25,679 nucleotides of DNA from Candidatus Aenigmatarchaeota archaeon (GTDB lineage Archaea; Aenigmatarchaeota; Aenigmatarchaeia; GW2011-AR5; JAGGXF01), in contig JAOZPR010000009.1 of the NCBI GenBank assembly GCA_029932645.1, positions 1-25,679 on the forward strand, given 5' to 3'. Within the stretch, counting starts at the first letter, position 1, and each line of letters starts with the position of its first letter. Shown one piece after another: positions 3-25,678 of this stretch. Under the pieces are notes generated by a model. The model was not told the DNA's origin. It did no database searches and saw only the letters and a list, made by a program, of their open reading frames with translations. A program made the translations under genes and the position numbers.

Positions 3-3000
3 TCACAGAGTGGTTACAACGACACCATAAACTGGACAGGTGTGTATGCAGAGTTATATAACGGATCAATTTTATTCAACACTGGTGGCACAGACATATA
101 TGGCTATCTACTAATGAAAGTACAGAAGTCAGAAGCTGGTGGATGGACAGACGTGGAAACAGTTGTTGACGATACCTCGCCGAGAAACATACTAAGCGGT
201 TCTTATCTTAACCTCTCGTCAATATGGAATCCCGCCGGTTGGGACACAGATAAAAGAGATCCAGGAACATATAGAGTGTTCGCAGCACTGAGAGATGGTT
301 CCGGAAATATACTTGAAAATGATGACAATAGTTTGATGACAGGTTACTATCAATTTAACCTAACACCGCCACCCAGTATGATAGAGATAGAAAACATTAA
401 AATCTACGATGTTACAAATGCTGCTAATAATCACACCGATACAACAAATCTAACTGGTTCTGGAACAAACACGACATTTAATCTATATACTGGAAAATTA
501 TATAGAATAGAGTTTTGGGTGAAGAATAACGACAGCAGCGAGGCGAACTGGACCATCAGCTCGTCAGATGACATATTCCACGAATACCTGAACAGCACTT
601 GGGCCATAGATAACAATACTGATATGTGGTTTGCCAACGACACGACAAACAACACAGGCGGAAGCTGGTCTGGTGGAAAGGTCGATTGGGACACTTCGCA
701 AGGGATGAACGTGACCATAGGCAATTATGTCAAGTTCTATTACGTATTCAATATAACGACCGCTGCGAATGAAAACTATCAAGTCCATTTCATGATTAAC
801 AACACATATTTCACAGAGGAAGACTATTCAACGTTCAAGATAATCCTCAGCGAGAGCCAGCCACCGCAACTTTATAATAATATCTATAATATTACACCAA
901 CACAAGTTGACAGGGGGCAATCAGCATTAGTCTATGCGCGCTGGAACGAGGAAATTTCCGAGGCAAAGACTGAATACAACAGCACCTCCTCGACATTACA
1001 GAATCATACAATCAGCCTGCCAGACCCCAACCCACAGAACTGGACAAACCACACAATTTCAACGAACTCTGGCTGGACAACTGGCGTGCACAAAGTAAAG
1101 ATATATGCAGCAGACATGAACAGCAACTGGAACAACACATTGAGCTATCTCGACCTTGATGTCTACGGCTTAGCAAGCGTGGTTGACTCTAATTTAACAA
1201 ACGACACGATTGACTCGGGCGGCTGGACAATAATGCAGTGCCGTGTGCAGGCCGACAACAGCAGTTATATAGAATCTTATAATGTCACATTCTATAATTC
1301 CACAGATTATTTAGGTTACAACACCACAAATGCCACAGGCTGGGCTCGATTCAACTTCACAGACAATAGCCTTGGATACGAAACAATAACGTGTAATATT
1401 ACAGACGATACAACAAAATTCTTACATGCTTCTTCCCAACATCAGAAACAAGAAACCCTTCACACGATAGAGCATGAGCCTCCAAAATACTATAATGTTA
1501 GTCCAAGCCTCTCTATGCAGCACAAGGGATATAACATAACTTATAGGTCCAACTGGACTGATAACTTTGAGCTAGATTATGCATGGTTAGAAACGAATGA
1601 AACCGGGCAGTGGAAAAACAACTCTTTACACAATCCAATCAAGTTAACAGGAGATGAAGACTGGGCAAATTTCACAGTCACACTGCCTCAGAACATGACA
1701 CCGGGAATAATGGGTTGGAGAATATGGGCAAACGACACATCTGGCAACATCAACAAAACAGATGTCAATACGACAGAAGTCCGCGCATGGATAGGTGTTG
1801 CGGACAGTGATCTAACACCTAGTACTATATTCAACAATAGCTGGTCGGTAATGTATTGTCAGGTTCAGGAGGCCAACACATCCGGCATAGATAATTACAA
1901 TGTAACATTCTACAGTAATGAGTCTGGCTACATGGGTTGGAACACGACCAATGCGACAGGTTGGGCTCGATTCAACTTCACAGACAATACAACAGGCCTT
2001 GAAGAAATAACATGTAATATTACAGACGATCTTTCAAGGTATCTCGAGGTCGCTCCAGGTTATGAAAACAGAACAGAAACCCTGGACACCAGAGTTCCTG
2101 GTGCAGATGTGACACCACCAGGTCTGGTTGATAATACATACGGTTTGAACACGACATGGGTCTGGAAAGGCGGTTCTGTTTTAGCATATGCCCACTGGAA
2201 TGAAACAATATACGATGCCTATATAAAATACAATTCCACATCTTCGAGTTTTGAGAGCCATCAAATATCGGGACTGCCGAGCAATTGGACAAATTATACA
2301 ATTTCTACAAATTCTAGCTGGATAGTGGGTAATCATTCTGTGAAGATAAATGCCAGTGATTTTGACAACAACTGGAACAACAGCCTTGAATACAAACACT
2401 TCATCGTTTGGGGACGGTCAGAAGTCGTATGGCTTTCACCTTCTGCTACTGTTTACAGGCAGACGACAGCATTAAGTTGTAATGTGACTGATAAGGACAG
2501 CGGCGAGCCAATACAAGGTGTAACTGTCAAGTTCTACAACGGGTCATGGGAATATTTGGGTTCAAATGATTCAGACGCCACTGGCAAGGCTGAAATAAAC
2601 TACGACTTTAGTTCATATGCGGTGGGACCACAGACGCTGCACTGCGTCATAGAAAATGAACCAAGTCTGTACTACAATACATCATCCGGCGACGACACAG
2701 GCAACGGGCCAATAACTGTGAAAGGTCTCCTGAATGTTAGCATAGATAATCCCGCACCCGGCACAGATGTGCGTAAAGGAGAAATAATATGGCTAAACTC
2801 CAGTACCAAAGATGAATTCGACCAATCTGTCAGCGTCAATGCAACGTGGCGAAACACGACCACAGAATTGGCGACAACAGAGGACTATAATTGGACCATA
2901 CCTGTCGGACATTCTGTCGGTCCAGAACTCATAACCATTAATGTGTCTAAACAATATTACGACCCCGATTCCAAGAACGTTAGTGTAAACGTATGGGGAT

Positions 3001-6000
3001 GGTCAAATATAACCTGGGACAGTCCGGCCTCCGGTAATTATACACAAGAAACTGTGCTGAACCTAACATGTCGCGTACTCGATGCGAACACATCATCAGG
3101 CATCGAGTCTTACAATGTCACATTCTACAACAATGATACGGGCTACATGGGCTACAACACAACGAACAGCACGGGCTATGCGATTTACCATTGGGATACA
3201 ACAGGTCTGCTCGGTAATTACACAGTTACTTGTAATATAACAGACGACGCTTCTGTTTATTATAACGCGACAGCTGATGATTCTGCGACTGCCTGGTTTG
3301 ATATGACAGCAGCAGACACAGAAGCACCCAAATACTCTGGTGTAAACCAGACTGTCGGCGGCACAAATGTAACATTAATACACAAGGGCGAGTCAGTCAA
3401 TTTCACTGCTACATGGACAGATGACCACAACCTTAGCACAGCCCTGCTCGCGACCAATGAGACCGGTTCAATGCAGAACAAGACTGCGAATTACTCATCT
3501 CCGTATTCATTCACAACCGCGATCGGGCCAGAACAAAGCACACTCGAGTGGTCCAACATAACAGACTTCACAGGTCCAATGGGCTGGCAAATCTGGGCAA
3601 ATGATACGACAGGCAAGTCCAACCAGACACCTCTACAGACCATATATGTTTGGGGATGGTCCGAGGTTGATAATGCATATCTGCAGCCCGATAATATAAA
3701 CCAAAGCCAGCAGACTACGATGTATTGTCATGTGCGCGATGCAAACACCACATCTGATTTGAATCAATATAATGTCACATTCTACAACTCTACTGACTAC
3801 TTGGGCTACAACACAACAAACGCAACAGGCTGGGCTCAGTTCACATTTACAGATTATTCTCCTGGTCAAGAAACTATTACGTGTAACATAACTCATGACG
3901 CCTCGCAATATTACAACGCATCTGCCAACAATGAGGGATCTGATGTTCTGACTACAAATGATACAGAGGCGCCGCAATACTCTGATATCAAGCAAACTGT
4001 TGGCGGTTCGCCAGTCACGCTCATACACAAAGGTGAATCAGTAAATCTGAGCGCAAACTGGACAGATAATTATAATCTCAGCACAGCAATATTAGCAACA
4101 AATGAAACAGGTTCATGGCACAACTGGACTGGTAACTATTCATCTCCATATTCATTCACAAGCGCAACTGGTCCTGAGCAGAGCGTGTTCGAATGGTCAA
4201 ACATAACAGATTTCACCGGGTTGATGCAATGGCGCATATATGCAAATGACACAACAGGCAACACGAATGTTACGCCTGCTCAGAATATTTACATATGGGG
4301 CTGGAGTAATATAACCTGGATAGAGCCAACCGAGGACCAGTTCCCTGTTTACAACATTATTGATATAGTATGCAGGGTTCAGGATGTGAATGATTCATCA
4401 GTCATAGAAGATTACAATGTCACGTTCTACAACAACAAGACAGGCTACATGGACTGGAACACGACCAACTCGACAGGTTATGCAGTCTATCACTGGAATG
4501 CGAGCAGCACAGGCAACTATACAATAACCTGTAATATAACTGATTGGGCCGACAAGTATTACAATGCATCTGCTACCAACTCGCAGAACATGTCCATATA
4601 CATCTATAATCAAGTCCCGAACATTACTGATAATGGTTTCACACCAAATACAAACACATACTGGGGCCGCACATACCAGTTCAATGCCACGGTCTCTGAT
4701 GCAGAGTCAGATAACTGTACGGTTAAACTCAATATAGACGGCCAGGTTGTCAACCAGTCTACCCAAGAATGCCCTTCTTCTGGCACAGATGTATTATTGA
4801 ACTGGACAACAGACTACCTGGATGTCGGACAACATGATTATAACTTCACAATTAATGACACAGCAGGCAATTACAATACGACATCAAACAGCACCATAAC
4901 AATAGAGGCAAGAGATTTAGACACGCTTGCTGGTTCATGGACACCTACGGGTTCTATTGTCTACAAAAACGAGACAATCAACTTTACTGTGTCGTCTGTC
5001 ACAGACGAGGCGTCTGATGCTGTGGACGCAACAAACTATACACGCTCAGACACTGGCGATTGGGATCCGTCTGACAACAACGTAGCTGACACGATAAGTC
5101 CGAATGCCCGCGTCACAAACACGACACAATATTATAAAGCATATGCCAACCAGACCAAGCAGTACACAGTATGGTCTTATTCCAATGTGTCCATAACATC
5201 ACCGCCTGACAGCACGCAGGTGGCTCGTGGAGATATAGAGAACATAACATGCAGGGTTGTTGATTATTTCAGCGGGTCCGGAGCGAACAACTACCCAGTA
5301 GACTTCTATATTGATGATACATACAACACAACAATAAATACCAACTCAACAGGCTACGCAACATTCTCCTGGAACAGTTCTGGTTACAGCTTCGGGTTTC
5401 ATGATGTAAATTGCACAATAGATGATAATGAGACGCTGAAATATAATGCATCTGATGATAATGACCACATACAACTTGAGGTCATTGCCGGTGGCACGCT
5501 TTCTGTTAATGTTACTGAGCCTGCAAACCAGAGCGACTACAATCTGTCTGATCAGTTCACCATAAATATAAATGCTTCGTGTTCTGGCGGCGACTGCGGC
5601 GCTGTTAACCTGACACTGCAGTATTGTTCTGGCACATCTTGTACTGATTGGGCAGATGTTTCTACAACAACACCGATAAACACAAGCGAGCCTGCTGAGC
5701 AGGTCTGCGACAGCGACTTGTTGAACAGTGAGCAGTGTAATGTCACATGGACAGTCTGGGCCAGAGACGGCGGAACATACAGAATAAACGGCTTGGCTGA
5801 AAGCACTGTGCTGAACCCTGTCAATGACACAACACCCAACACAATATACATAAACCAGCTGAACGCGACAATAGACAAGCCAGAAGACGATTATCAGTTA
5901 TACGTTAACACAGAGTTCACGCTAAACGGAACAATATATTGCGAGGGCAAGACATGCGGCCATGTCTATGCTTATGCACAGGACAACGAAACTGGCGCAT

Positions 6001-7640
6001 GGGAAAACACAGGTTCGAACAATCTGACAACAACAGACAGCAATCCTTATGACTGCGGTGTCATGAACGACGGGGATTATTGCTATCCTGAGTGGAATAT
6101 GACTTCGGCTGTCGCGAAGGCATATTGGGTCAGGATTTATGTAAACAATTCTGCAGACACTTTGAATAATGTCACCAGCGTAAGGAAAGTTACATTTGCG
6201 ACCGACTTGGACGCGCCACAATATTCAAATGTTAACCAGACAGTTGGCGGCTCCCATGTTACGTTAATTCATAAGGGTGAGTCGGTTAACCTGAGCGCAT
6301 ACTGGACAGACAATGCAGAACTTGATTATGCTCTGCTTGCAACAAACGAAACAGGCTCAATGCAGAACAAGTCTGCTTACGGATCACCACATGACTTTGC
6401 CGGTTCCAACGAATCGTGGGCTAATTTCACTTGGTCCAACATAACAGATTTCACAGGTCCAATGGGCTGGCAGATTTGGGCAAATGATACATCAAACCTC
6501 AGCAACCAGACGCCGTTGCAGACCATATACATTTGGGGTTGGTCTAACGTGACATGGGTTAGTCCAGACTCTACAAACTACACAGAAGGCACGATAGTCA
6601 ATATCACATGTCGCGTACTCGATGCGAACACATCATCAGGCATCGAGTCTTACAATGTCACATTCTACAACAATGATACGGGCTACATGGGCTACAACAC
6701 AACGAACAGCACGGGCTATGCGATTTACCATTGGGATACAACAGGCTCGTCAGGCAACTATACGATAACTTGTAACATAACTGATTGGGCTGCTGAATAC
6801 TATAATGACACAGCCCAGAACAGCGACAACAGATGGTTTAACATAACCGAAGCTCCGTTCTATCTCGAAGCATATTTATATGAACCTGTCGACGACCAAG
6901 TTGTTGGTAAAGACAGGTTATTTACTGTAAATGCCACAGCCATTTGTCGCAATGCGACCTGTGGCACGATTTACGGAACAGTACGATATAACAAAACTAC
7001 TGGTTCCCCAGATACACCCATCAATGAGACCCCGGACACTCCATTTTGGATACCGTCCGGGGTTAATACTCAAAACTGCACAAACGTGTTGGAAAACCAG
7101 TCTTGCAACCTGACATGGTCTGTGAATGCTTCGGGCGGATTCAGGGAAAAATATGAAATAGGCGTTAGATTCAGCAGCTCAGGTGTTACAAACGACACGC
7201 CAAGCAACACAGTAGAGATAGGCAAGGTCTTGCTTTTGAACCTCACATTCGATTCAATCGATTTCGGGGAGCATGACCCTGGCACAGAAAATGTTTCAGC
7301 GCCGGGCAACACGAATAATCAATATAATATAACAGTTGAGCCAAACTCCAATAACGTAGAATGGTTATGGATAAAAAGCACAAACCTGACACACACAGAT
7401 TATGAGGGCAGTCCGAGTCCGCCAAGTTATACGATAATACCAGCCACAAGCGTCAAATGGAACAACCAAACCAACAATGTTACAAGCGCGGCCGCCATGA
7501 GTAATGTTTATCAGTTGATGCGCGAGAATGTGTCGTCAAACACGACCATCAATACATACTATTGGATATCTGTGCCGACCGGAAAGGCACACGGCGTTTA
7601 CAACGGCGTGATGTACATATTTGCTAATGCGACATACTAA
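3..7640 (+). CDS. Giant repetitive secreted/surface glycoprotein (tandem Ig-like beta domains, C-terminal fimbrial-subunit-like domain); 5' end lies upstream of the window
   Basis: ORF track gives 42..7640 (2532 aa) but the frame is open back to position 3 and no signal peptide is visible. N/T/S/D-rich with very many N-x-S/T sequons. Recurring modules such as 'C.V.DANTSSGIESYNVTFYN...GYNTTN.TG.A' and 'D.EAP.YS...QTVGG..VTLIHKGESVN..A.WTD...L..A.LATNETG'. No C-terminal TM anchor. Confidence 0.85.
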   Translation, partial: SQSGYNDTINWTGVYAELYNGSILFNTGGTDIYGYLLMKVQKSEAGGWTDVETVVDDTSPRNILSGSYLNLSSIWNPAGWDTDKRDPGTYRVFAALRDGSGNILENDDNSLMTGYYQFNLTPPPSMIEIENIKIYDVTNAANNHTDTTNLTGSGTNTTFNLYTGKLYRIEFWVKNNDSSEANWTISSSDDIFHEYLNSTWAIDNNTDMWFANDTTNNTGGSWSGGKVDWDTSQGMNVTIGNYVKFYYVFNITTAANENYQVHFMINNTYFTEEDYSTFKIILSESQPPQLYNNIYNITPTQVDRGQSALVYARWNEEISEAKTEYNSTSSTLQNHTISLPDPNPQNWTNHTISTNSGWTTGVHKVKIYAADMNSNWNNTLSYLDLDVYGLASVVDSNLTNDTIDSGGWTIMQCRVQADNSSYIESYNVTFYNSTDYLGYNTTNATGWARFNFTDNSLGYETITCNITDDTTKFLHASSQHQKQETLHTIEHEPPKYYNVSPSLSMQHKGYNITYRSNWTDNFELDYAWLETNETGQWKNNSLHNPIKLTGDEDWANFTVTLPQNMTPGIMGWRIWANDTSGNINKTDVNTTEVRAWIGVADSDLTPSTIFNNSWSVMYCQVQEANTSGIDNYNVTFYSNESGYMGWNTTNATGWARFNFTDNTTGLEEITCNITDDLSRYLEVAPGYENRTETLDTRVPGADVTPPGLVDNTYGLNTTWVWKGGSVLAYAHWNETIYDAYIKYNSTSSSFESHQISGLPSNWTNYTISTNSSWIVGNHSVKINASDFDNNWNNSLEYKHFIVWGRSEVVWLSPSATVYRQTTALSCNVTDKDSGEPIQGVTVKFYNGSWEYLGSNDSDATGKAEINYDFSSYAVGPQTLHCVIENEPSLYYNTSSGDDTGNGPITVKGLLNVSIDNPAPGTDVRKGEIIWLNSSTKDEFDQSVSVNATWRNTTTELATTEDYNWTIPVGHSVGPELITINVSKQYYDPDSKNVSVNVWGWSNITWDSPASGNYTQETVLNLTCRVLDANTSSGIESYNVTFYNNDTGYMGYNTTNSTGYAIYHWDTTGLLGNYTVTCNITDDASVYYNATADDSATAWFDMTAADTEAPKYSGVNQTVGGTNVTLIHKGESVNFTATWTDDHNLSTALLATNETGSMQNKTANYSSPYSFTTAIGPEQSTLEWSNITDFTGPMGWQIWANDTTGKSNQTPLQTIYVWGWSEVDNAYLQPDNINQSQQTTMYCHVRDANTTSDLNQYNVTFYNSTDYLGYNTTNATGWAQFTFTDYSPGQETITCNITHDASQYYNASANNEGSDVLTTNDTEAPQYSDIKQTVGGSPVTLIHKGESVNLSANWTDNYNLSTAILATNETGSWHNWTGNYSSPYSFTSATGPEQSVFEWSNITDFTGLMQWRIYANDTTGNTNVTPAQNIYIWGWSNITWIEPTEDQFPVYNIIDIVCRVQDVNDSSVIEDYNVTFYNNKTGYMDWNTTNSTGYAVYHWNASSTGNYTITCNITDWADKYYNASATNSQNMSIYIYNQVPNITDNGFTPNTNTYWGRTYQFNATVSDAESDNCTVKLNIDGQVVNQSTQECPSSGTDVLLNWTTDYLDVGQHDYNFTINDTAGNYNTTSNSTITIEARDLDTLAGSWTPTGSIVYKNETINFTVSSVTDEASDAVDATNYTRSDTGDWDPSDNNVADTISPNARVTNTTQYYKAYANQTKQYTVWSYSNVSITSPPDSTQVARGDIENITCRVVDYFSGSGANNYPVDFYIDDTYNTTINTNSTGYATFSWNSSGYSFGFHDVNCTIDDNETLKYNASDDNDHIQLEVIAGGTLSVNVTEPANQSDYNLSDQFTININASCSGGDCGAVNLTLQYCSGTSCTDWADVSTTTPINTSEPAEQVCDSDLLNSEQCNVTWTVWARDGGTYRINGLAESTVLNPVNDTTPNTIYINQLNATIDKPEDDYQLYVNTEFTLNGTIYCEGKTCGHVYAYAQDNETGAWENTGSNNLTTTDSNPYDCGVMNDGDYCYPEWNMTSAVAKAYWVRIYVNNSADTLNNVTSVRKVTFATDLDAPQYSNVNQTVGGSHVTLIHKGESVNLSAYWTDNAELDYALLATNETGSMQNKSAYGSPHDFAGSNESWANFTWSNITDFTGPMGWQIWANDTSNLSNQTPLQTIYIWGWSNVTWVSPDSTNYTEGTIVNITCRVLDANTSSGIESYNVTFYNNDTGYMGYNTTNSTGYAIYHWDTTGSSGNYTITCNITDWAAEYYNDTAQNSDNRWFNITEAPFYLEAYLYEPVDDQVVGKDRLFTVNATAICRNATCGTIYGTVRYNKTTGSPDTPINETPDTPFWIPSGVNTQNCTNVLENQSCNLTWSVNASGGFREKYEIGVRFSSSGVTNDTPSNTVEIGKVLLLNLTFDSIDFGEHDPGTENVSAPGNTNNQYNITVEPNSNNVEWLWIKSTNLTHTDYEGSPSPPSYTIIPATSVKWNNQTNNVTSAAAMSNVYQLMRENVSSNTTINTYYWISVPTGKAHGVYNGVMYIFANATY
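3066..3205 (+). repeat. 140-bp exact intragenic repeat, copy 1
   Basis: Identical by eye to 6606..6745 (offset 3540, in frame). Confidence 0.9.
6606..6745 (+). repeat. 140-bp exact intragenic repeat, copy 2
   Basis: Identical by eye to 3066..3205. Confidence 0.9.
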
Positions 7641-12611: not shown

Positions 12612-13634
12612 ATGCCGGAAAAACTGGAAAAAAATCAATTTGAGCAGGAAAGAGCACAGTTGAAGCAGAAGGTGATTTCTTATAATAAAAAAATCTCTGC
12701 CCTGAGAAATGAGATAAAAAAGGTAATTATTGGCCAGGAACATGAGATTGATAGTGTTCTTAAATGCCTGCTCGTCAACGGTCACGCACTGCTTGAAGGA
12801 AACCCTGGCCTGGCAAAGACGCTACTTGTTCGGGCGCTGTCTATGACCATATCCAATTCTACATTTAATAGGATACAATTTACGCCAGATTTGTTGCCTG
12901 CTGATATCATAGGTCTTATGATTTATAACCCAGAAAAAGGATTTTATGTAGAAAAAGGGCCGGTTTTCGCTAATTTTATACTGGCAGATGAAATCAACAG
13001 GGCGCCGCCTAAGGTGCAGTCTGCTCTTCTAGAATCCATGCAGGAGAGAATGGTAAGCATAGGTAAAGAAACATTTGATTTACCCAAGCCGTTCTTGGTC
13101 TTGGCTACGCAGAACCCGCTAGAGCAGATGGGTGTCTATCCACTGCCTGAAGCACAAGTTGACCGGTTTTTGTTCAAGGTTTGGGTTGACTATCCTGTAC
13201 CAGAAGAAGAACTAGATATTATAGACACAAACATAGAGACAATGACCATGGAGGATTATAATATTAAGCAGATACTAGGACCGAAAGAAATAATCGAGAT
13301 GCAACATTTGGTCAAGCAGATATACATCTCTGAAAAAATCAAAAAATATATTGTTGATATCGTAAACGCCACCAGATACCCGAAAAAATATGGAATACCT
13401 TCGGGCAAGTACATACAATGGGGAGGTTCCCCAAGGGCATCCATATACCTCTCTGTCGCAGCCAAATCAAACGCCTTTATGAACAACCGGGTATTTGTCA
13501 TACCAGAGGACATAAAGGGCATAGCCATGGAAGTTCTCAGACACAGAATAATTTTAAACTACGAGGGAAAGGCAGCCGAAATCAAGACAGATGAAATTAT
13601 CAATGACATCTTAGATAAAATACCTGTCCCCTAA
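12612..13634 (+). CDS. moxR: MoxR-family AAA+ ATPase
   Basis: GHALLEGNPGLAKT (Walker A), RIQFTPDLLPADI, ILADEINRAPPKVQSALLESMQE (Walker B), ATQNPLEQMGVYPLPEAQVDRF, GGSPRAS, VLRHRI. Confidence 0.95.
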   Translation: MPEKLEKNQFEQERAQLKQKVISYNKKISALRNEIKKVIIGQEHEIDSVLKCLLVNGHALLEGNPGLAKTLLVRALSMTISNSTFNRIQFTPDLLPADIIGLMIYNPEKGFYVEKGPVFANFILADEINRAPPKVQSALLESMQERMVSIGKETFDLPKPFLVLATQNPLEQMGVYPLPEAQVDRFLFKVWVDYPVPEEELDIIDTNIETMTMEDYNIKQILGPKEIIEMQHLVKQIYISEKIKKYIVDIVNATRYPKKYGIPSGKYIQWGGSPRASIYLSVAAKSNAFMNNRVFVIPEDIKGIAMEVLRHRIILNYEGKAAEIKTDEIINDILDKIPVP

Positions 13635-13701
13635 TGTCATAATATCGTCACCCCGTAATAAATTCTAATAGCATAAAAAAGACGTGAAAGGGTAATTATT
13701 T

Positions 13702-14679
13702 ATGAAAAGACCAGATGGACACGTGTCCAGACACATAACTAAAAAGGCCAGGGACTTGTATCCAAGGATAGAGCCAATGTTTGGTAGGCAAACTGTGACA
13801 GGTCATGGTCATAAAGCAAACTTGAGTGCATTGATGAAAGAGGTCGATATCAATGTTAAGAAATTGATAGAACTTTTCAGATTTATTTTGAAGTATAGAA
13901 TTATTTTTCGTGGAAGTGGTATAGAGTTTGCTGGACTGAGAGAATACACACCAGAAGACGATGCTAGCAGAATAGACTGGAAGTCCAGCGCCAGAACAGG
14001 AAAGATTTATGTGAAGATATTTGAAGAGGAGCGCGACTTGGATTTATTTTTATTGGTTGATGTTTCTAACTCCATGTTATTTGGTACAGCAGAAAAATTA
14101 AAAAGTGAATATGCGACCATTCTCGCAGCAACTATTGCTTATGCTGGGATAGAGGTTGGTGATAAGGTTGGTGTCGGTTTGTTCAGTGACAAGATGGTTA
14201 AAGTAATACCACCTGCTCAGGGAAGTCTACAATATTTCAAAATTTTGAAAGCGTTGGTAGACCCAGACAACTATGGCGGGCTTTGTAATCTTTGGGACGC
14301 GCTAAAATATGTCAATCGGTTTATCAGGAAGAGGTCTATTATATTTATTGTTTCAGATTTTATAGGTGCCGAACACGATTGGTTTGACGAGCTTCGCGTC
14401 ACCGGTTATCGGTTTGATCGCTTGCTTGGTATTATGGTAAGAGACCCAAGAGACGATTTTTTAACAACAGGCGTCGGGAGCATGAGGTTTTCTGACCCAT
14501 TTTCAGACAAAAAGATGGTCGTAGATGTGGATAAATACGTGGAGGAGTACAAAAAGGCTGCCAAGCTCCAGAGACTGTTTGTCGAAAAACAGTTTCATAT
14601 TAACAATGGCGGGTTTGTTCAGACCTATACTACGGAGCCGTTTATCAAGCCGCTTATGAGGTATTTTTTACTTCTCTAA
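13702..14679 (+). CDS. DUF58 domain protein (VWA-like MoxR partner)
   Basis: GSGIEFAGLREYTPEDDASRIDWKSSAR...VKIFEEER..LFLLVDVSNSM; directly downstream of moxR. Confidence 0.92.
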   Translation: MKRPDGHVSRHITKKARDLYPRIEPMFGRQTVTGHGHKANLSALMKEVDINVKKLIELFRFILKYRIIFRGSGIEFAGLREYTPEDDASRIDWKSSARTGKIYVKIFEEERDLDLFLLVDVSNSMLFGTAEKLKSEYATILAATIAYAGIEVGDKVGVGLFSDKMVKVIPPAQGSLQYFKILKALVDPDNYGGLCNLWDALKYVNRFIRKRSIIFIVSDFIGAEHDWFDELRVTGYRFDRLLGIMVRDPRDDFLTTGVGSMRFSDPFSDKKMVVDVDKYVEEYKKAAKLQRLFVEKQFHINNGGFVQTYTTEPFIKPLMRYFLLL

Positions 14680-14740
14680 TAAGCTTCAAATGAATTATAC
14701 ATAACCGGCAGAAAAGTTGCATTGTTAATATTGTAAATAA

Positions 14741-14776
14741 TTTGGATTTTCCAAATGATTATTTGGATTATCCTAA
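14741..14776. promoter_or_regulatory. Paired TTTGG-N5-CCAAA palindromes (14741-14755 perfect; 14762-14776 variant)
   Basis: TTTGGATTTTCCAAA and TTTGGATTATCCTAA, starts 21 bp apart, between convergent genes. Confidence 0.5.
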
Positions 14777-14780
14777 GGCA

Positions 14781-15761
14781 CTAAGGAATAGTTTTATACT
14801 TGGTCGCGCCAAGTGCCCATTCTGTTAAGAAAAACAAAACACCCAATAGCAGCAAATAATAGCTTATGTCTATCCTTTTTTGCTTCGCTTCTATAATAGT
14901 CTTTTCATACGCCTCTTTAAGAGAGGTTCTGTTAGTAGCAAGGAAAAACTTTCCACCTGTATTGTTTGATATATATTCCAATGCTTCTGTGTCAAGTTCA
15001 GGAAATTCTGCCAAAGTTCCACCTTTGAGTTCTTTTGATATATTTAGTTGCGTTCTGTCCATGGTCATATTTGTTCCTATACCAATCGCGTAGACGGTTA
15101 TGTTATTTTCTTTGACGAACTTCACGGTTTCATTCACAGAAAGCCCTCTATTATTTTTTCCGTCTGTTAATAATATAATTGCCCGTGTTTTATTTGATTC
15201 AGAAACCACAGTAGCTGCTGTGAGCAGAGCATCTGATATAGCTGTTCCAGCAGGGGTTTCAAAGTTTATATCTTCGATTGTTTTTCTAACTTTTTTAAGG
15301 TCTGTGGTGAGTCCGATTTTTTTATATGGTTTTCCTGCAAATGTTACAAGACCTACTCGAGTATCTGCTGGTATGATATCTAAAAGGTATGTCGATGCAT
15401 CTTTGGCAGCCTCCAGCCGGTTGGGGATAAAATCTGCTGTAGACATGCTAGATGACGTATCTATAGCCAGAACAAAATCAAAGTTTGAAACATTCCTGAC
15501 AGTTATAATAGTAAAGCTGGAAAGCCCCAGAATAATACATGTTATACCCAGAATTCTTAGAATCAATATTATGTAATCATTCTGGAATATCTTATTGCCA
15601 ACAACACGCTGTAAAATCTCAAAGTTGCTGAACTTGACGACTCTTTTTCTTCTCGACCGCAATGTGATTAGATGCAGAATTATAGTTATGCCTATAAGTA
15701 GAAGCATCAGGTTGATATTTTCATAAGAAAATGATATCTCCATTTCAATCCCTTCGTACAC
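14781..15761 (-). CDS. BatA-like membrane-anchored VWA domain protein
   Basis: N-terminal TM helices with 'VVKFSN' and 'ILILRIL'; MIDAS 'AIDTSSSM'; 'PNRLEAAK', 'GTAISDAL', 'IILLTDG', 'VYAIGIG', 'TGGKFF'; C-terminal TM. The start may be 15743. Confidence 0.92.
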   Translation of the reverse strand: MYEGIEMEISFSYENINLMLLLIGITIILHLITLRSRRKRVVKFSNFEILQRVVGNKIFQNDYIILILRILGITCIILGLSSFTIITVRNVSNFDFVLAIDTSSSMSTADFIPNRLEAAKDASTYLLDIIPADTRVGLVTFAGKPYKKIGLTTDLKKVRKTIEDINFETPAGTAISDALLTAATVVSESNKTRAIILLTDGKNNRGLSVNETVKFVKENNITVYAIGIGTNMTMDRTQLNISKELKGGTLAEFPELDTEALEYISNNTGGKFFLATNRTSLKEAYEKTIIEAKQKRIDISYYLLLLGVLFFLTEWALGATKYKTIP

Positions 15762-15787: not shown

Positions 15788-16384
15788 TTATGTAAGAAAT
15801 TTTCTAATGTCCAGATAAAATCTTTCAGCATTAAATAATACCAGATGATTTTCAAGCAGATCTTTCAAATATGAGGGTTTTTCTTTTATTCTTTCCACGA
15901 AATCTTCATATAAACATACTGTGCCGCTTGTTTTTGCTTTTAGTTTGTATTCCAAATTCTTAGCTATTTTCTGGAGTTTCTCATCAATTTCCTTTTTATT
16001 ATGAGAGCACACAACTATAAAGTTTATTTTCTTTTCCTTTTTCTTTTCTGTTTTTTCCAAAGCTTTTTTTATTAATATTATAAATAATACATTTTTGTCT
16101 CCCAACTCTTTAACTATATTTTTGACAGCCGATTCTTTCATCTTACTAATCTCTCTGTTGTTGAGAAAAGAAAGAAGGGAAATCGTTTCATCGTTTTCTA
16201 TGTTAAGAGAATAGAGATAGAGGTTTGCAATTTTTCTCTTGTTTATTAGCTTCTGCTGGTTCAGACTTTGGAGATACCTGAATGCAGGCTCCCTTGAGAA
16301 CGGTACCTTCTTTAGAATATCAGCAAACCCGAATTCTCCAAACCCTCGTAAAACATTCAAAACCAAGAGTTCTTTTTCATTCAT
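15788..16384 (-). CDS. Winged-helix DNA-binding protein with degenerate nucleotidyltransferase-like C-terminal domain (putative regulator)
   Basis: N-terminal wHTH pattern 'FADILKKVPFSREPAFRYLQSLNQQKLINKRKIANLYLYSLN'. The C-terminal domain has the layout of archaeal minimal nucleotidyltransferases but lacks the GS/DxD catalytic residues. GAGGT SD upstream. Confidence 0.7.
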   Translation of the reverse strand: MNEKELLVLNVLRGFGEFGFADILKKVPFSREPAFRYLQSLNQQKLINKRKIANLYLYSLNIENDETISLLSFLNNREISKMKESAVKNIVKELGDKNVLFIILIKKALEKTEKKKEKKINFIVVCSHNKKEIDEKLQKIAKNLEYKLKAKTSGTVCLYEDFVERIKEKPSYLKDLLENHLVLFNAERFYLDIRKFLT

Positions 16385-16422
16385 CTCTTACCTCTCCGTT
16401 CCATTTCAGCTCTCTGCACCAT

Positions 16423-16458
16423 TTCAGTAAAACCAAACATATGTTTGGATTTTCCAAA
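16423..16458. promoter_or_regulatory. TTTGG-N5-CCAAA operator-like site upstream of the wHTH gene
   Basis: Perfect TTTGGATTTTCCAAA at 16444-16458 and a half-degenerate site 21 bp away (16423-16437). Confidence 0.6.
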
Positions 16459-16521: not shown

Positions 16522-17454
16522 TTAGCTCACTATTATCCTCATGTATCCTATTGGCAGTGTACCTACATAAGTACCATATGGTATCCTTGCTTCAACATAT
16601 ATCGGCGTATAGTTACCTGGTGCAAAGTCATGTCCTTCTGTCTCGTTGTCGAATATATATGTCGCGTGTGTTCCTGTTTCTGAAGCTCCTGGCAGATCCA
16701 TATTCCATTTATAGAATATGACCTTGGAACAGTCACTAGGTACAGCAACATTATACTCTTCACTGCCTACTGTTATGTTTGCCCATCCGTATGTGTTGTC
16801 TCCCGAATCTGTGGTCAATGTCCATGGCGTATTATCTGTCAGGTCTATGTCACCTGTGTTATCTGAGTTATGATAACTATCACCTATATACAATTGCGTT
16901 CCTGTTTCATTACAGCCAGATGATTTGTTCAGTCCCCAGAACCATTCCTTGCTTGCGTTCCTGAATCTACCGGTCCTGTCATCTGGTATCGAGCCTCTTT
17001 TCAAATATACTGGGGCTCTTGGCATAGCATACTCGACTCTGTTTATGAACCAGTATGATCCTTCTCCAGTCATATTATTGGTTACTGCTATGAAGTTTCC
17101 GGGATCATAGTTAGTGCCATCACCAGACGCGAATGGGTTTGTGGTAGGCATTGTTGCATTTAGCCAAACTTTGGACACATTCTCTGAACCAATATTCTCT
17201 ACTTCCATCGCATATACGGTATTTGTCCTTCCCGGAACTGATACACAGTCGTCATCCGTGGACAAACAATTTGGTACGGTTCCTGGTTCAACGTTTTCTG
17301 TCCAAGACATGTTATCCTCTGAAACATCTACCCATGTTCTAGATTGTAGTGTAACTGTTACAGTGGCATTACCTGCTTCTGTTCCTGCAAACACTGGTAT
17401 TGATAGAACACCGAGAAATACTACTAGAATACTAAGGATAAGTGTGGTCTTCAT
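16522..17454 (-). CDS. Secreted beta-rich surface/filament subunit, paralog 1
   Basis: 310 aa; signal peptide ending PVFA-G; no TM anchor; GGAGG SD; paralog of 17898..18836. Confidence 0.85.
   Translation of the reverse strand: MKTTLILSILVVFLGVLSIPVFAGTEAGNATVTVTLQSRTWVDVSEDNMSWTENVEPGTVPNCLSTDDDCVSVPGRTNTVYAMEVENIGSENVSKVWLNATMPTTNPFASGDGTNYDPGNFIAVTNNMTGEGSYWFINRVEYAMPRAPVYLKRGSIPDDRTGRFRNASKEWFWGLNKSSGCNETGTQLYIGDSYHNSDNTGDIDLTDNTPWTLTTDSGDNTYGWANITVGSEEYNVAVPSDCSKVIFYKWNMDLPGASETGTHATYIFDNETEGHDFAPGNYTPIYVEARIPYGTYVGTLPIGYMRIIVS
16573..16941. repeat. 369-bp identical block shared by the two paralogs, copy 1
   Basis: Identical by eye to 17949..18317 (offset 1376). Confidence 0.9.
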
Positions 17455-17507
17455 AAACTATTCCCTCCATTAATTATTGCTAACTATTTATTTTTCCAGA
17501 AGAGGAC

Positions 17508-17571
17508 TATATAAAGATTTCGATTTGTTATTATGTTTGAGTGATTCAAATAAGTATTTGGATTTTCCAAA
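17508..17571 (-). promoter_or_regulatory. BRE/TATA promoter of paralog 1 with two upstream palindromic sites
   Basis: Minus strand CGAAAT-C-TTTATATA (17522-17508); TTTGAGTGATTCAAA at 17536-17550 and TTTGGATTTTCCAAA at 17557-17571, 21 bp apart. Confidence 0.65.
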
Positions 17572-17638
17572 CGATATAAAAACACGCCAATTTTACATTT
17601 CTTAGTCCAGTAATAAAATGTCAGTGAGGCGAGAACTT

Positions 17639-17724
17639 AAAAAAAGAAAAAAAGAGGTGGGAGGTAAGAGGATAAAGCCAAGGAGGGAACAAGAGGGACT
17701 TGAGAACATCCTGGCTTTATCTGC
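17639..17724 (-). ncRNA. Candidate CU-rich antisense regulatory sRNA (~85 nt)
   Basis: Own BRE/TATA (CGATAA-TTTTATATA, 17760-17746), 13-bp hairpin GAUAAAGCCAGGA/UCCUUGGCUUUAUC and an oligo-U end. Loop and tail are complementary to the RBS regions of three neighbouring genes. Ends are estimates. Confidence 0.55.
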
Positions 17725-17805
17725 TTAGTTTCTGCACATAAGCGGTATATAAAATTATCGACGTTTTGCAACCAAAAATGATCATTTTCAATAAGAGAAT
17801 TATCG

Positions 17806-17820
17806 TTTGGATTTTCCAAA
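17806..17820. promoter_or_regulatory. TTTGGATTTTCCAAA palindrome upstream of the candidate sRNA promoter
   Basis: Perfect copy of the motif about 50 bp upstream of the TATA box at 17746-17754. Confidence 0.6.
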
Positions 17821-17897
17821 CGATTGAAATGGACCGGCGAATAAGAAACAAATAAAAGAAAAATTAAAAGGAAAAATAAAAAATTCTAAAATCGCAC

Positions 17898-18836
17898 CTA
17901 GCTCACTATTACTCTCAAATAGCCTGTTGGCAGCGCACCGACATAAACACCATATGGTATCCTTGCTTCAACATATATCGGCGTATAGTTACCTGGTGCA
18001 AAGTCATGTCCTTCTGTCTCGTTGTCGAATATATATGTCGCGTGTGTTCCTGTTTCTGAAGCTCCTGGCAGATCCATATTCCATTTATAGAATATGACCT
18101 TGGAACAGTCACTAGGTACAGCAACATTATACTCTTCACTGCCTACTGTTATGTTTGCCCATCCGTATGTGTTGTCTCCCGAATCTGTGGTCAATGTCCA
18201 TGGCGTATTATCTGTCAGGTCTATGTCACCTGTGTTATCTGAGTTATGATAACTATCACCTATATACAATTGCGTTCCTGTTTCATTACAGCCAGATGAT
18301 TTGTTCAGTCCCCAGAAATATTCACTGTTTGCATCTCTGAATCTACCGGTCCTGTCATCTGGTATCGAGCCTTTTATTAAATACACAGGCGCCCTTGACT
18401 GGGTGAACTCTACCCTGTTAACAAAGTAGTATCCACTTGCTCCACCAGATGTCGTACTCACTGCTATGAAATTTCCTGGGTCATATGAGCTTGTTCCACC
18501 AGATGCAAATGGGTTGCTGCTTGGCATAGTTGTATTGACCCAAATTTTGCTCACGTTTTCTGAACCGATGTTCTCTATTTCTAGACCATACACATTATGT
18601 CCAAGTCCGGTGTCAATACAATCACTTGCTGTATCACAGCTTGGTTTTGAACCTGGGTCTACTGTCGTTGTCCAGCTCATCGAGCTTCTCGACAGGTCTA
18701 CCCATGTCTGGGATTGTATGGTAGCACCTACTGTAGAATTGCCCGCTTCTGTCCCTGCAGCTACTGGTATCGCTAGTATTGCTAGAATACCAAATGTTAG
18801 CAATAGCGAAAAAAACTTAAAATTTTTTAATGTCAT
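17898..18836 (-). CDS. Secreted beta-rich surface/filament subunit, paralog 2
   Basis: 312 aa; signal peptide ending PVAA-G; mature N-terminus GTEAGN shared with paralog 1; double GGAGG SD. Confidence 0.85.
   Translation of the reverse strand: MTLKNFKFFSLLLTFGILAILAIPVAAGTEAGNSTVGATIQSQTWVDLSRSSMSWTTTVDPGSKPSCDTASDCIDTGLGHNVYGLEIENIGSENVSKIWVNTTMPSSNPFASGGTSSYDPGNFIAVSTTSGGASGYYFVNRVEFTQSRAPVYLIKGSIPDDRTGRFRDANSEYFWGLNKSSGCNETGTQLYIGDSYHNSDNTGDIDLTDNTPWTLTTDSGDNTYGWANITVGSEEYNVAVPSDCSKVIFYKWNMDLPGASETGTHATYIFDNETEGHDFAPGNYTPIYVEARIPYGVYVGALPTGYLRVIVS
17949..18317. repeat. 369-bp identical block shared by the two paralogs, copy 2
   Basis: Identical by eye to 16573..16941. Confidence 0.9.
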
Positions 18837-18876
18837 AATGTCCCTCCTATTTCCTCCTTCTGTCCTCTTACTATCA

Positions 18877-18994
18877 TTTGGTTAGACCAAATAATATGTT
18901 TGAAAAGCTAAATATATGTTTGGACAACCCAAATAAATACTTTTCGGTATTTTTTATATTTGGTTAAGCAAAACATAAGTTTGAGATATCCAAA
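18877..18994. promoter_or_regulatory. Array of TTTGG-N5-CCAAA-type sites upstream of paralog 2
   Basis: TTTGGTTAGACCAAA at 18877, weak site at 18898, TTTGGACAACCCAAA at 18919, TTTGGTTAAGCAAAA at 18959, TTTGAGATATCCAAA at 18980; mostly in 21-bp phasing. Confidence 0.6.
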
Positions 18995-19133
18995 CAATTT
19001 ATATATCAGAGACTATATTCATCTCCAAGACTGTTCTTGGTCTTTTTCAGATTATTTTTCAGATTAAGAAGGCGTTGAGAAGGCGACACAGAGCTTTTAT
19101 TAATGTTTTTAAGATTCTGCCACAACTTTTATT

Positions 19134-21499: not shown

Positions 21500-21609
21500 G
21501 CCGAGATGACAGAGTCAGGTCAAAACGATATTAAAAACGAGATTAAATGTGCTCGCCTCGAGAGCGAGTGAGCCTTGTGCTCGCGCAGGTTCAAATCCTG
21601 CTCTCGGCG
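21500..21609 (+). tRNA. tRNA-Ser(CGA) with a 23-nt D-loop intron (21524-21546)
   Basis: Acceptor GCCGAGA/TCTCGGC+G; anticodon arm CTCGC-CT-CGA-GA-GCGAG; long variable arm; T-arm GCAGG-TTCAAAT-CCTGC. BHB-like GGTC-AAA...GATT-AAA; the spliced D-arm is ACA-GAGTCAGGTCAAA-TGT. Confidence 0.93.
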
Positions 21610-23582: not shown

Positions 23583-23743
23583 GCAGAGGTAGCCAAGTCT
23601 GGTCAAAGGCGTAGGACTCAAGTAAACTTTTAGAAAAAGTTTAATCAAAATATTACTTGAGTTTTGAGTTTTGCACCGCAAAACCATGATAAGAGAAATC
23701 CTATCCATTAGTTGGTTCGTCGGTTCGAATCCGGCCCTCTGCA
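23583..23743 (+). tRNA. tRNA-Leu(CAA) with a 75-nt canonical 37/38 intron (23623-23697)
   Basis: Acceptor GCAGAGG/CCTCTGC+A; D-arm GCC-AAGTCTGGTCAAA-GGC; anticodon stem TAGGA/TCCTA with CT-CAA-G|A; variable arm; T-arm GTCGG-TTCGAAT-CCGGC; spliced length 86 nt. Confidence 0.93.
23653..23692 (+). ncRNA. Intron-encoded single C'/D'-type guide element antisense to its own pre-tRNA anticodon
   Basis: Guide TTACTTGAGTT (23653-63) pairs with 23615-25. D'-like TTGA at 23664-67, stem GTTTTGC/GCAAAAC, C'-like ATGATAA at 23686-92. Confidence 0.65.
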
Positions 23744-24919: not shown

Positions 24920-25678
24920 TCAATCTTTCAGATAATTCTTATACTCTTTTATATATCTTCTGAAAAACCATTGTAAGAATATAATTTCACTCCTTTTAAT
25001 TTGAGACCTTTCTAGAGCATTGTAATAACTTGTTCTATTTTCATAAGGGATATTGAGCATAGGATAACCATGTTTGTGCAGAACAAAATTCATCATAATT
25101 CTTGATATACGCCCATTGCCGTCTGTAAAAGGGTGTATCGTCACGAATTTTAAATGTGTTAGAGCTGCCAATTCAACAGGGTTTGTTTTGTCCTTGCTTT
25201 TATTATACCACTTGAAAAATTCTCTAATTAGAGGATAAATTTCAGCAGGGAACGGCGGCATGAATTTGCTGCCAGAGATTTTTACTTGATGAGATCTTAT
25301 CTTTCCAGCTATGTCTGGTTTTGATAGTCCGAATAGTTTTTTATGCCAGTATAACACAATCTGCAAGGACAGCTCTTTTTTATATTTCAACACCTCGTCA
25401 AAAATTTTTTTATGGGCCTTTGCCTCTTCAACATCCTGCAGAGATTTATCTTTTGGGGTGGTGTCCCTCTCGAGTAAATTTGCCGTTTCTCTTAGTGTTA
25501 ACTTCGAGCCTTCAATTCTTTGCGTGTCATATGTAAACCTGATTGCAAAAATTTCTTTTTCCTTTTCTTTGGCAGATCTCGGCATATTTTTCGTTTCTTT
25601 AGAATAATTTCTCTTTATTTTTTCAACTGTTGAATACCATTTTTCTTTGTAAATCTCATAAATGAACTGCTTTTTTAT
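24920..25678 (-). CDS. Fic (Fido) domain protein; 5' end probably beyond the window
   Basis: Canonical HPFTDGNGRISR motif and TYDTQRIEGSKLT. ORF track starts at 25585 but the frame stays open to the window edge. Confidence 0.9.
   Translation of the reverse strand: MKKQFIYEIYKEKWYSTVEKIKRNYSKETKNMPRSAKEKEKEIFAIRFTYDTQRIEGSKLTLRETANLLERDTTPKDKSLQDVEEAKAHKKIFDEVLKYKKELSLQIVLYWHKKLFGLSKPDIAGKIRSHQVKISGSKFMPPFPAEIYPLIREFFKWYNKSKDKTNPVELAALTHLKFVTIHPFTDGNGRISRIMMNFVLHKHGYPMLNIPYENRTSYYNALERSQIKRSEIIFLQWFFRRYIKEYKNYLKD

Follow-up and report, generated by a model that had tools for sequence, protein, structure and literature searches.

A candidate small RNA in the spacer between two secreted-protein paralogs of an Aenigmatarchaeota archaeon, predicted to pair with the ribosome-binding region of one of them

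Whether the spacer between two tandem paralogous genes on the minus strand of an archaeal contig encodes a regulatory RNA, and which of the neighbouring genes such an RNA would address, is the question raised by this locus. The original prediction placed there a minus-strand small RNA (sRNA) antisense to the ribosome-binding regions of both paralogs and of the adjacent wHTH regulator, regarded it as a translational switch between alternative subunits, and named a DNA inversion as the alternative. The window, that is, the whole stretch of DNA analysed, is one complete contig (C10) of 25,679 bp belonging to an assembly of 718 kb (43 contigs, 41% G+C, 89% complete) in which no 16S rRNA was found; its archaeal content comprises the gene of an eRF1/Pelota-type protein and two tRNA matches of 110 and 161 nt (Rfam). 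Since these matches (21500-21609 and 23583-23743) are of such length and are missed by ARAGORN, the tRNA genes are probably intron-containing. The wider neighbourhood (3-7640, 12612-15761 and 24920-25585) encodes a protein of more than 2,500 amino acids with Ig-like and MG3-like domains, a MoxR-DUF58-VWA/BatA cluster and a Fic-domain protein. The features relevant to the question are collected in Table 1.

Table 1. Positions of the genes, of the elements of the candidate unit and of the operator copies (window coordinates unless another contig is named)
Feature	Position	Strand	Remarks
Putative regulator (wHTH)	15788..16384	minus	198 aa; N-terminal three-helix wHTH-like part, C-terminal alpha/beta domain
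Paralog 1	16522..17454	minus	310 aa, 75% identity to paralog 2
T7CT7 tract	17639..17653	minus	predicted archaeal terminator of the unit
Single-stranded CU-rich tail	17654..17672	minus	holds anti-leader segment 2 and the wHTH-matching 10-mer
Hairpin	17671..17721	minus	12-bp stem (17721-17710 with 17682-17671), 11 Watson-Crick pairs and 1 G-U
Hairpin loop	17709-17683	minus	27 nt, CU-rich
Anti-leader segment 1	17680..17699	minus	17/20 nt in the loop; complementary to both GGAGG of the paralog-2 leader
TATA octamer TTTATATA	17753-17746	minus	seen in the sequence
BRE-like purine/A-rich heptamer	17760-17754	minus	predicted archaeal promoter 17746..17760
Operator before the unit	17802..17824		perfect 23-bp palindrome, core 17806-17820; ~53 nt upstream of the TATA octamer
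Short T-tract run	17845..17890	minus	directly 3' of the paralog-2 stop codon, upstream of the candidate unit
Paralog 2	17898..18836	minus	312 aa, secreted, sequon-rich, without Pfam domain
Paralog-2 5' leader, two GGAGG	18837..18871	minus	inverted-repeat partner of 17664-17699
Strict operators, window	14741-14755; 16444-16458; 17557-17571; 17806-17820		the last three before wHTH, paralog 1 and the unit, respectively
Degenerate operators, window	17536, 18919, 18980
Other strict operators	C36:13117, C36:4779, C11:22946, C11:22988, C12:674, C9:58852, C9:26394

Both paralogs begin with a signal-like helix and carry numerous N-x-S/T sequons; neither gives a family match in Pfam or NCBIfam, none of their 15 relatives in a large protein collection (0/15) has a Pfam domain on record, and the sole organism name among these relatives is that of an Aenigmatarchaeota MAG. 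The family is restricted to the Aenigmatarchaeota, the DPANN group to which the names of homologous proteins in databases assign the contig; a third paralog, 32% identical, lies on contig C36. The AlphaFold models are of low confidence (pLDDT 58 for paralog 2 and 54 for the regulator). The regulator gives weak N-terminal HTH matches under the NCBIfam cut-off, and its language-model neighbours are archaeal clusters with Pol-beta/minimal nucleotidyltransferase domains, some of them with an HTH domain in addition. Over their final 300 nt (16523-16822 and 17899-18198) the paralogs are 96% identical, as against 75% for the whole proteins, a difference which suggests that the C-terminal half underwent gene conversion recently; sequencing run X2 shows 18 differences in 424 nt in the tract as carried by paralog 2. 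The spacer itself, with its 443 nt, is unexceptional, ranking 64th among 473 same-strand gaps between ORFs of at least 90 aa, and the T-tracts at its upstream end are likely the primary terminator of paralog 2.

The anatomy described in the original prediction was largely borne out: the TATA/BRE-like elements, the CU-rich loop, the CU-rich tail and the U-tract are all present on the minus strand, with the correction that the stem has 12 bp and not 13. The heptamer preceding the TATA octamer resembles the BRE consensus. Archaeal TATA boxes centre near -26, and transcription is therefore predicted to start near 17722, at the base of the hairpin stem. The octamer TTTATATA also lies 53 nt upstream of the ATG of paralog 1 and of that of the C36 paralog; as a word it is common, with 114 occurrences in the genome, a number which weakens its value as evidence for an sRNA. 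The fold of the 107-nt sequence has a minimum free energy of -26 kcal/mol and a z-score of -5.27, none of 200 shuffles being equally stable, and the 52-nt hairpin (-20 kcal/mol) belongs to the top 0.25% of 70,250 non-ORF windows, hairpins of at least that stability being found at 62 distinct loci. A role of U-tracts in archaeal termination is described in PMC8716108. No known family accounts for the element: the Rfam scan of the window returned three tRNA matches only, all away from the unit, and a permissive scan of 17455-17897 returned two chance-level eukaryotic matches far under the gathering threshold. A sigma-70 style promoter scan was set aside as irrelevant, the host being an archaeon. 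Since a promoter-like octamer, a stable hairpin and a long U-tract are unlikely to stand in this order and at this spacing by chance, a real transcription unit appears, on balance, somewhat more probable than its absence.

The pairings on which the three-target proposal was founded all exist, the coordinates given for the sRNA side being each 1 nt too low. Checked base by base, nucleotides 17699 to 17680 pair with 18840-18859 of the paralog-2 leader through 17 Watson-Crick and 2 G-U pairs with 1 mismatch, and 17672 to 17664 pair with 18863-18871 at 9 of 9 positions; 17670 to 17661 pair with 16385-16394, directly 5' of the wHTH ATG (10/10), and 17689 to 17682 with the paralog-1 SD at 17461-17468 (8/8). 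The two segments directed at paralog 2 are collinear and jointly amount to an inverted copy, 36 nt long, of that gene's leader, broken by a 4-nt indel; the gapped alignment of the two repeats comprises 29 identities, 3 transitions and 4 gap columns. The extra bases of the indel lie in the 3' arm of the stem, so that the anti-leader falls mostly into loop and tail, and the pairing bases are accordingly exposed (17 of the 20 of segment 1 in the loop, 7 of the 9 of segment 2 in the tail), as an antisense function would demand. The further argument that two of the three differences are G-U-compatible, and thus speak for pairing of RNA, carries no weight, since all three are transitions and each transition has an even chance of giving a G-U pair on a given strand.

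The significance of these pairings was judged against a background of 726 crude genes (ORFs of at least 90 aa), whose starts were chosen partly by their SD, a choice which favours the background; an 87-nt RNA was compared with each leader from -45 to +21, and an unrestricted ranking by duplex energy was discarded because its duplexes were unrealistically long and loop-ridden. The paralog-2 leader ranks first of 726 both by cofold ddG (-27.5 kcal/mol; mean -7.3, standard deviation 4.4, second -23.0) and by ungapped score (44; mean 19.8, standard deviation 4.2), and it is again at the top when all 726 leaders are compared with their own flanks of 2.5 kb on either side (44; next 41, 41 and 39). 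Among dinucleotide shuffles of the RNA, its contiguous score is reached by 3 of 1000, and by 0 of 1000 when the core without the U tail is shuffled. The other two targets fared differently: the wHTH leader ranks 5th by energy and 65th by ungapped score, its contiguous score being reached by 402 of 1000 dinucleotide shuffles, and the paralog-1 leader ranks 328th and 65th, respectively. The wHTH match is thus not above chance and that of paralog 1 is a generic Shine-Dalgarno match, as any RNA of this CU-rich composition gives them; the ranking against all leaders, which the original prediction had looked to, retains paralog 2 as the best of 726, together with the minus-strand unit and its exposed anti-leader, and the three-target switch between subunits is not sustained.

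The margin by which paralog 2 itself stands above chance is small, roughly at the 0.3-1% level, and composition accounts for much of the complementarity. The native hairpin has to open before binding, and for this reason its net energy with the paralog-2 leader is matched or exceeded by 100 of 300 shuffles (202 of 300 match or exceed it with wHTH, 298 of 300 with paralog 1). In a sample of 995 natural CU-rich windows, 5 score at least 44 against the paralog-2 leader, and these belong to 3 loci, all antisense to coding ORFs. The gapped repeat score at the level of DNA, 32, is only tied 4th-7th of 726, with two N-run artefacts and two AT-only cases among the six leaders that score at least 32 in this alignment, and a Gumbel estimate, made by hand from the mean and standard deviation of the flank comparison, puts the expected number of leaders with a flank match as good as this at about one per genome. 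The shuffle energies and the expectation of about one match per genome weigh against an sRNA; together with the comparable scores of the antisense strands, they are what would be expected if the inverted leader copy and the hairpin were a neutral relic of rearrangements among the tandem paralogs, from which nothing functional is made.

The comparison with relatives points in the same direction. Conservation in relatives, where the original prediction had proposed to look for synteny and covariation, was sought with a single-sequence covariance model, which found no credible homologue of the unit in 70 genomes of the order (69 besides the host's own); the weak matches in G032, G022, G030, G068, G034 and G028, and two in G001, are unrelated CU-rich stretches, and BLAST in 5 relatives gave no credible match either. 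In the sister species of the same genus (G001), the locus is split between the ends of contigs C38 and C10, the assembly breaking inside the repeated part of the paralogs; the spacer is missing, and a search of this genome for the 20-nt pattern with at most 3 mismatches found nothing, the spacer falling in the assembly gap. Its double-SD core is identical to that of the host, and its paralog-2 leader departs from the host's at two places, in the 9-mer and beside the first GGAGG. No such unit is present in the short spacers of the tandem paralogs of G015 and G019, the wHTH gene comes directly after the single paralog of a 68%-identical relative, and a metagenome scan yielded 2 loci, a single-paralog relative and a G001-like wHTH fragment, with the unit in neither. 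The element is thus an orphan, as a relic would be, and its absence from these relatives, the sister species apart, counts against an sRNA.

The region is present on contigs from four metagenome studies, of hydrothermal vents and marine sediments; among the runs listed for 17300-19100, none is of RNA. Among these four populations the RNA body shows 0 differences, a figure which their overall divergence is too low to make a sign of constraint, so that it cannot be credited to the sRNA; nearby SNPs occur at 17479, 17595 and 17724. The same contigs bear on the proposal that the imperfect repeats at 17664-17699 and 18837-18871 recombine and flip the whole paralog-2 gene. The repeats do flank the complete paralog-2 coding sequence together with the candidate promoter, as an inversion switch would require, and in this they resemble invertons. 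Unlike invertons, they are seen in one orientation only: no inverted form occurs in the contigs of four runs (X1, X2, X3 and X7, from 4 studies, at 85% likeness), though contigs drop rare variants; the sole contig joint reflects cross-matching of one paralog to the other, and no contig ends loosely where the repeats begin or end. The orientation of paralog 2 relative to a ThiI-like gene is unchanged in G001, no recombinase domain was found by Pfam in 20 ORFs of the window, the repeats differ by 3 mismatches and a 4-nt indel, and no homology surrounds them beyond operator-rich DNA. A switch of this kind is very unlikely. In run X3, in which contig depth is about 62, one contig stops and another, equally deep, starts inside the hairpin loop, the two overlapping by 30 nt at 17681-17710, a stretch which X1 and X2 span; there may be a minor variant diverging at 17711, and the position of the overlap does not fit recombination within the inverted repeats.

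The anti-leader matches the leader of paralog 2 and stands on the same strand as this gene, about 200 nt past its stop codon, and from this a different possibility arises. The anti-leader might belong to an extended 3' UTR, produced by read-through of the T-tracts, which would fold back on the 5' leader of its own messenger and close the ribosome-binding site, as in the icaR mRNA of Staphylococcus aureus, whose translation is controlled by pairing between the 5' and 3' UTRs (PMC3868564). The likeness consists in an anti-SD stretch downstream of a gene whose SD region it matches; icaR, however, is bacterial and acts within one molecule, and here several T-tracts directly 3' of the stop codon argue against efficient read-through, and the hairpin is preceded, after the stop codon, by a good TATA/BRE. 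With T-tracts and a promoter-like element standing between gene and anti-leader, a separate RNA is favoured, and a cis-acting element of the icaR type is considered quite improbable.

That the locus encodes a small protein is more improbable still and, of the explanations weighed, the least credible. Two frames are open, a Lys/Arg-rich one of 36 codons on the plus strand (17618-17728), just after the TATA-like ATATAAAAA by the 17557 operator, and one of 35 codons on the minus strand from the ATG at 17710. The former has no SD and no credible relative in 40 other genomes (best E 0.024, low-complexity), an open frame being expected in a purine-only tract; the latter runs through T7CT7, and an AGG abuts its ATG directly.

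Upstream of the unit lies a palindromic operator. Its strict core, TTTGGA-N3-TCCAAA, occurs in 11 copies in the 718 kb of the assembly, 4 of them within the window, and by our own arithmetic fewer than 0.1 copies are expected from base composition. The regulator's own promoter bears one copy and paralog 2 is preceded by degenerate ones; further copies lie 5' of the C36 paralog, of an FtsZ-like gene (two copies) and of a nucleotidyltransferase-like gene, and the operator is also found 5' of the paralogs in G001, in G015 (of another family of the order) and in one metagenome relative. From this distribution the palindrome appears to be the binding site of a regulator that controls a wider set of genes. 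At 14741-14780, between the convergent genes of DUF58 (13702-14679, plus strand) and BatA/VWA (14781-15761, minus strand), two operators, one of them degenerate, stand where there is no obvious gene to control; there may be another small unit at this place.

A perfect palindrome of 23 bp before the unit speaks for an sRNA gene, and yet it is open to the contrary explanation. The T-tracts and operator that follow paralog 2 are collinear with those that follow paralog 1, where the promoter of wHTH comes next, and for this reason the operator before the unit may have come along with the duplication of the paralogs; according to the relic explanation, operator and TATA would both have been copied with the 3' flank of the paralog. 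In our own reading this operator has been maintained independently of the gene-conversion tract, since the T-rich flank on the side of the stop codon seems to align poorly. Against a relic stand the promoter, the hairpin (z -5.3) and the U-tract, in exactly the order of a gene, and the circumstance that the very indel separating the repeat segments builds the stem. Nor does the predicted transcribed part simply represent wHTH 5' sequence that has decayed, a derivation which was rejected in view of the absence of residual homology, 259 of 500 shuffles aligning equally well. With these points on its two sides, a neutral relic is possible, if somewhat unlikely.

What is proposed instead, tentatively and as a plausible reading, is a lineage-specific minus-strand small RNA acting as a paralog-2-specific anti-RBS. 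It would be some 75-85 nt long and start near 17722 from its own TATA/BRE promoter, behind an operator like the ones that accompany the promoters of the paralogs and of wHTH, and it would end within the T7CT7 tract. The RNA would fold as one 12-bp hairpin, with the inverted copy of the paralog-2 leader on show in its large loop and 3' tail, and in the cell it would pair across both GGAGG and to within a few bases of the start codon, thereby blocking access of the ribosome to the paralog-2 mRNA only and sparing paralog 1. Given a transcript, repression of paralog-2 translation would be its likeliest function, in view of the exposed 20+9-nt match across the ribosome-binding site of a neighbour. 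In favour of this anti-RBS RNA are the correct order and spacing of its elements, the stability of its hairpin, the first place of the paralog-2 leader by both measures and in the flank comparison, and the T-tracts that paralog 2 possesses ahead of the unit. The cell would also offer it a suitable setting: SD-led genes exist (GGAGG at -16 to -4 in 20 of 606 long ORFs, compared with 0 in the control window), and the genome encodes an Lsm/SmAP gene. A real RNA with another role takes the remaining probability.

Hairpin loops showing CU- or C-rich motifs that pair with SD regions are familiar from RsaE/RoxS and LhrC of the Firmicutes; those RNAs are conserved, multi-target and bacterial, and the present candidate is an orphan with one target above chance. 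Closer at hand, anti-RBS sRNAs are known in archaea: sRNA41 and sRNA154 of Methanosarcina mazei are described in a review (PMC5867862) as masking the ribosome-binding site with exposed pyrimidine-rich stretches and so repressing translation, the anti-RBS of sRNA154 lying in a hairpin loop (loop 2). The candidate, like these as the review describes them, is an intergenic archaeal unit with an exposed pyrimidine-rich anti-RBS. It differs from them in that they have been detected and tested and it is a prediction in a DPANN host, and further in that its single supported target is the adjacent gene, its seed being an inverted copy of that gene's leader. If made, the predicted unit would therefore be a lineage-specific addition to a known kind of regulator, and it is to be regarded as a testable prediction and not as a discovery.

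Operator and leader copy can also be joined in one mixed circuit, in which a single palindrome-binding regulator would act on both paralogs, on itself and on the sRNA, and the leader-derived sRNA would silence paralog 2 only. Many plant microRNA genes arise by inverted duplication, and within this circuit the sRNA would have been born in a comparable manner, by inverted duplication of the paralog-2 leader, the whole serving to choose between paralogous surface glycoproteins. The complete circuit is regarded as unlikely.

The palindromic operator shared by the paralogs, the adjacent regulator, ftsZ and others is a by-product of the analysis more solid than the prediction of the sRNA itself. As for the latter, a title-level search of the literature on sRNAs in DPANN archaea, a weak negative, found no report; if true, the prediction would mean a regulatory small RNA in a DPANN archaeon, and the mixed circuit, if true, would provide the first riboregulator described in DPANN, in the form of an sRNA gene of very recent origin, derived from its own target. 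The RNA, if made, would illustrate the origin of a paralog-specific silencer from the leader of the gene it silences, and would offer a handle on how very small cells that depend on a host vary an abundant surface protein coated with sugars.
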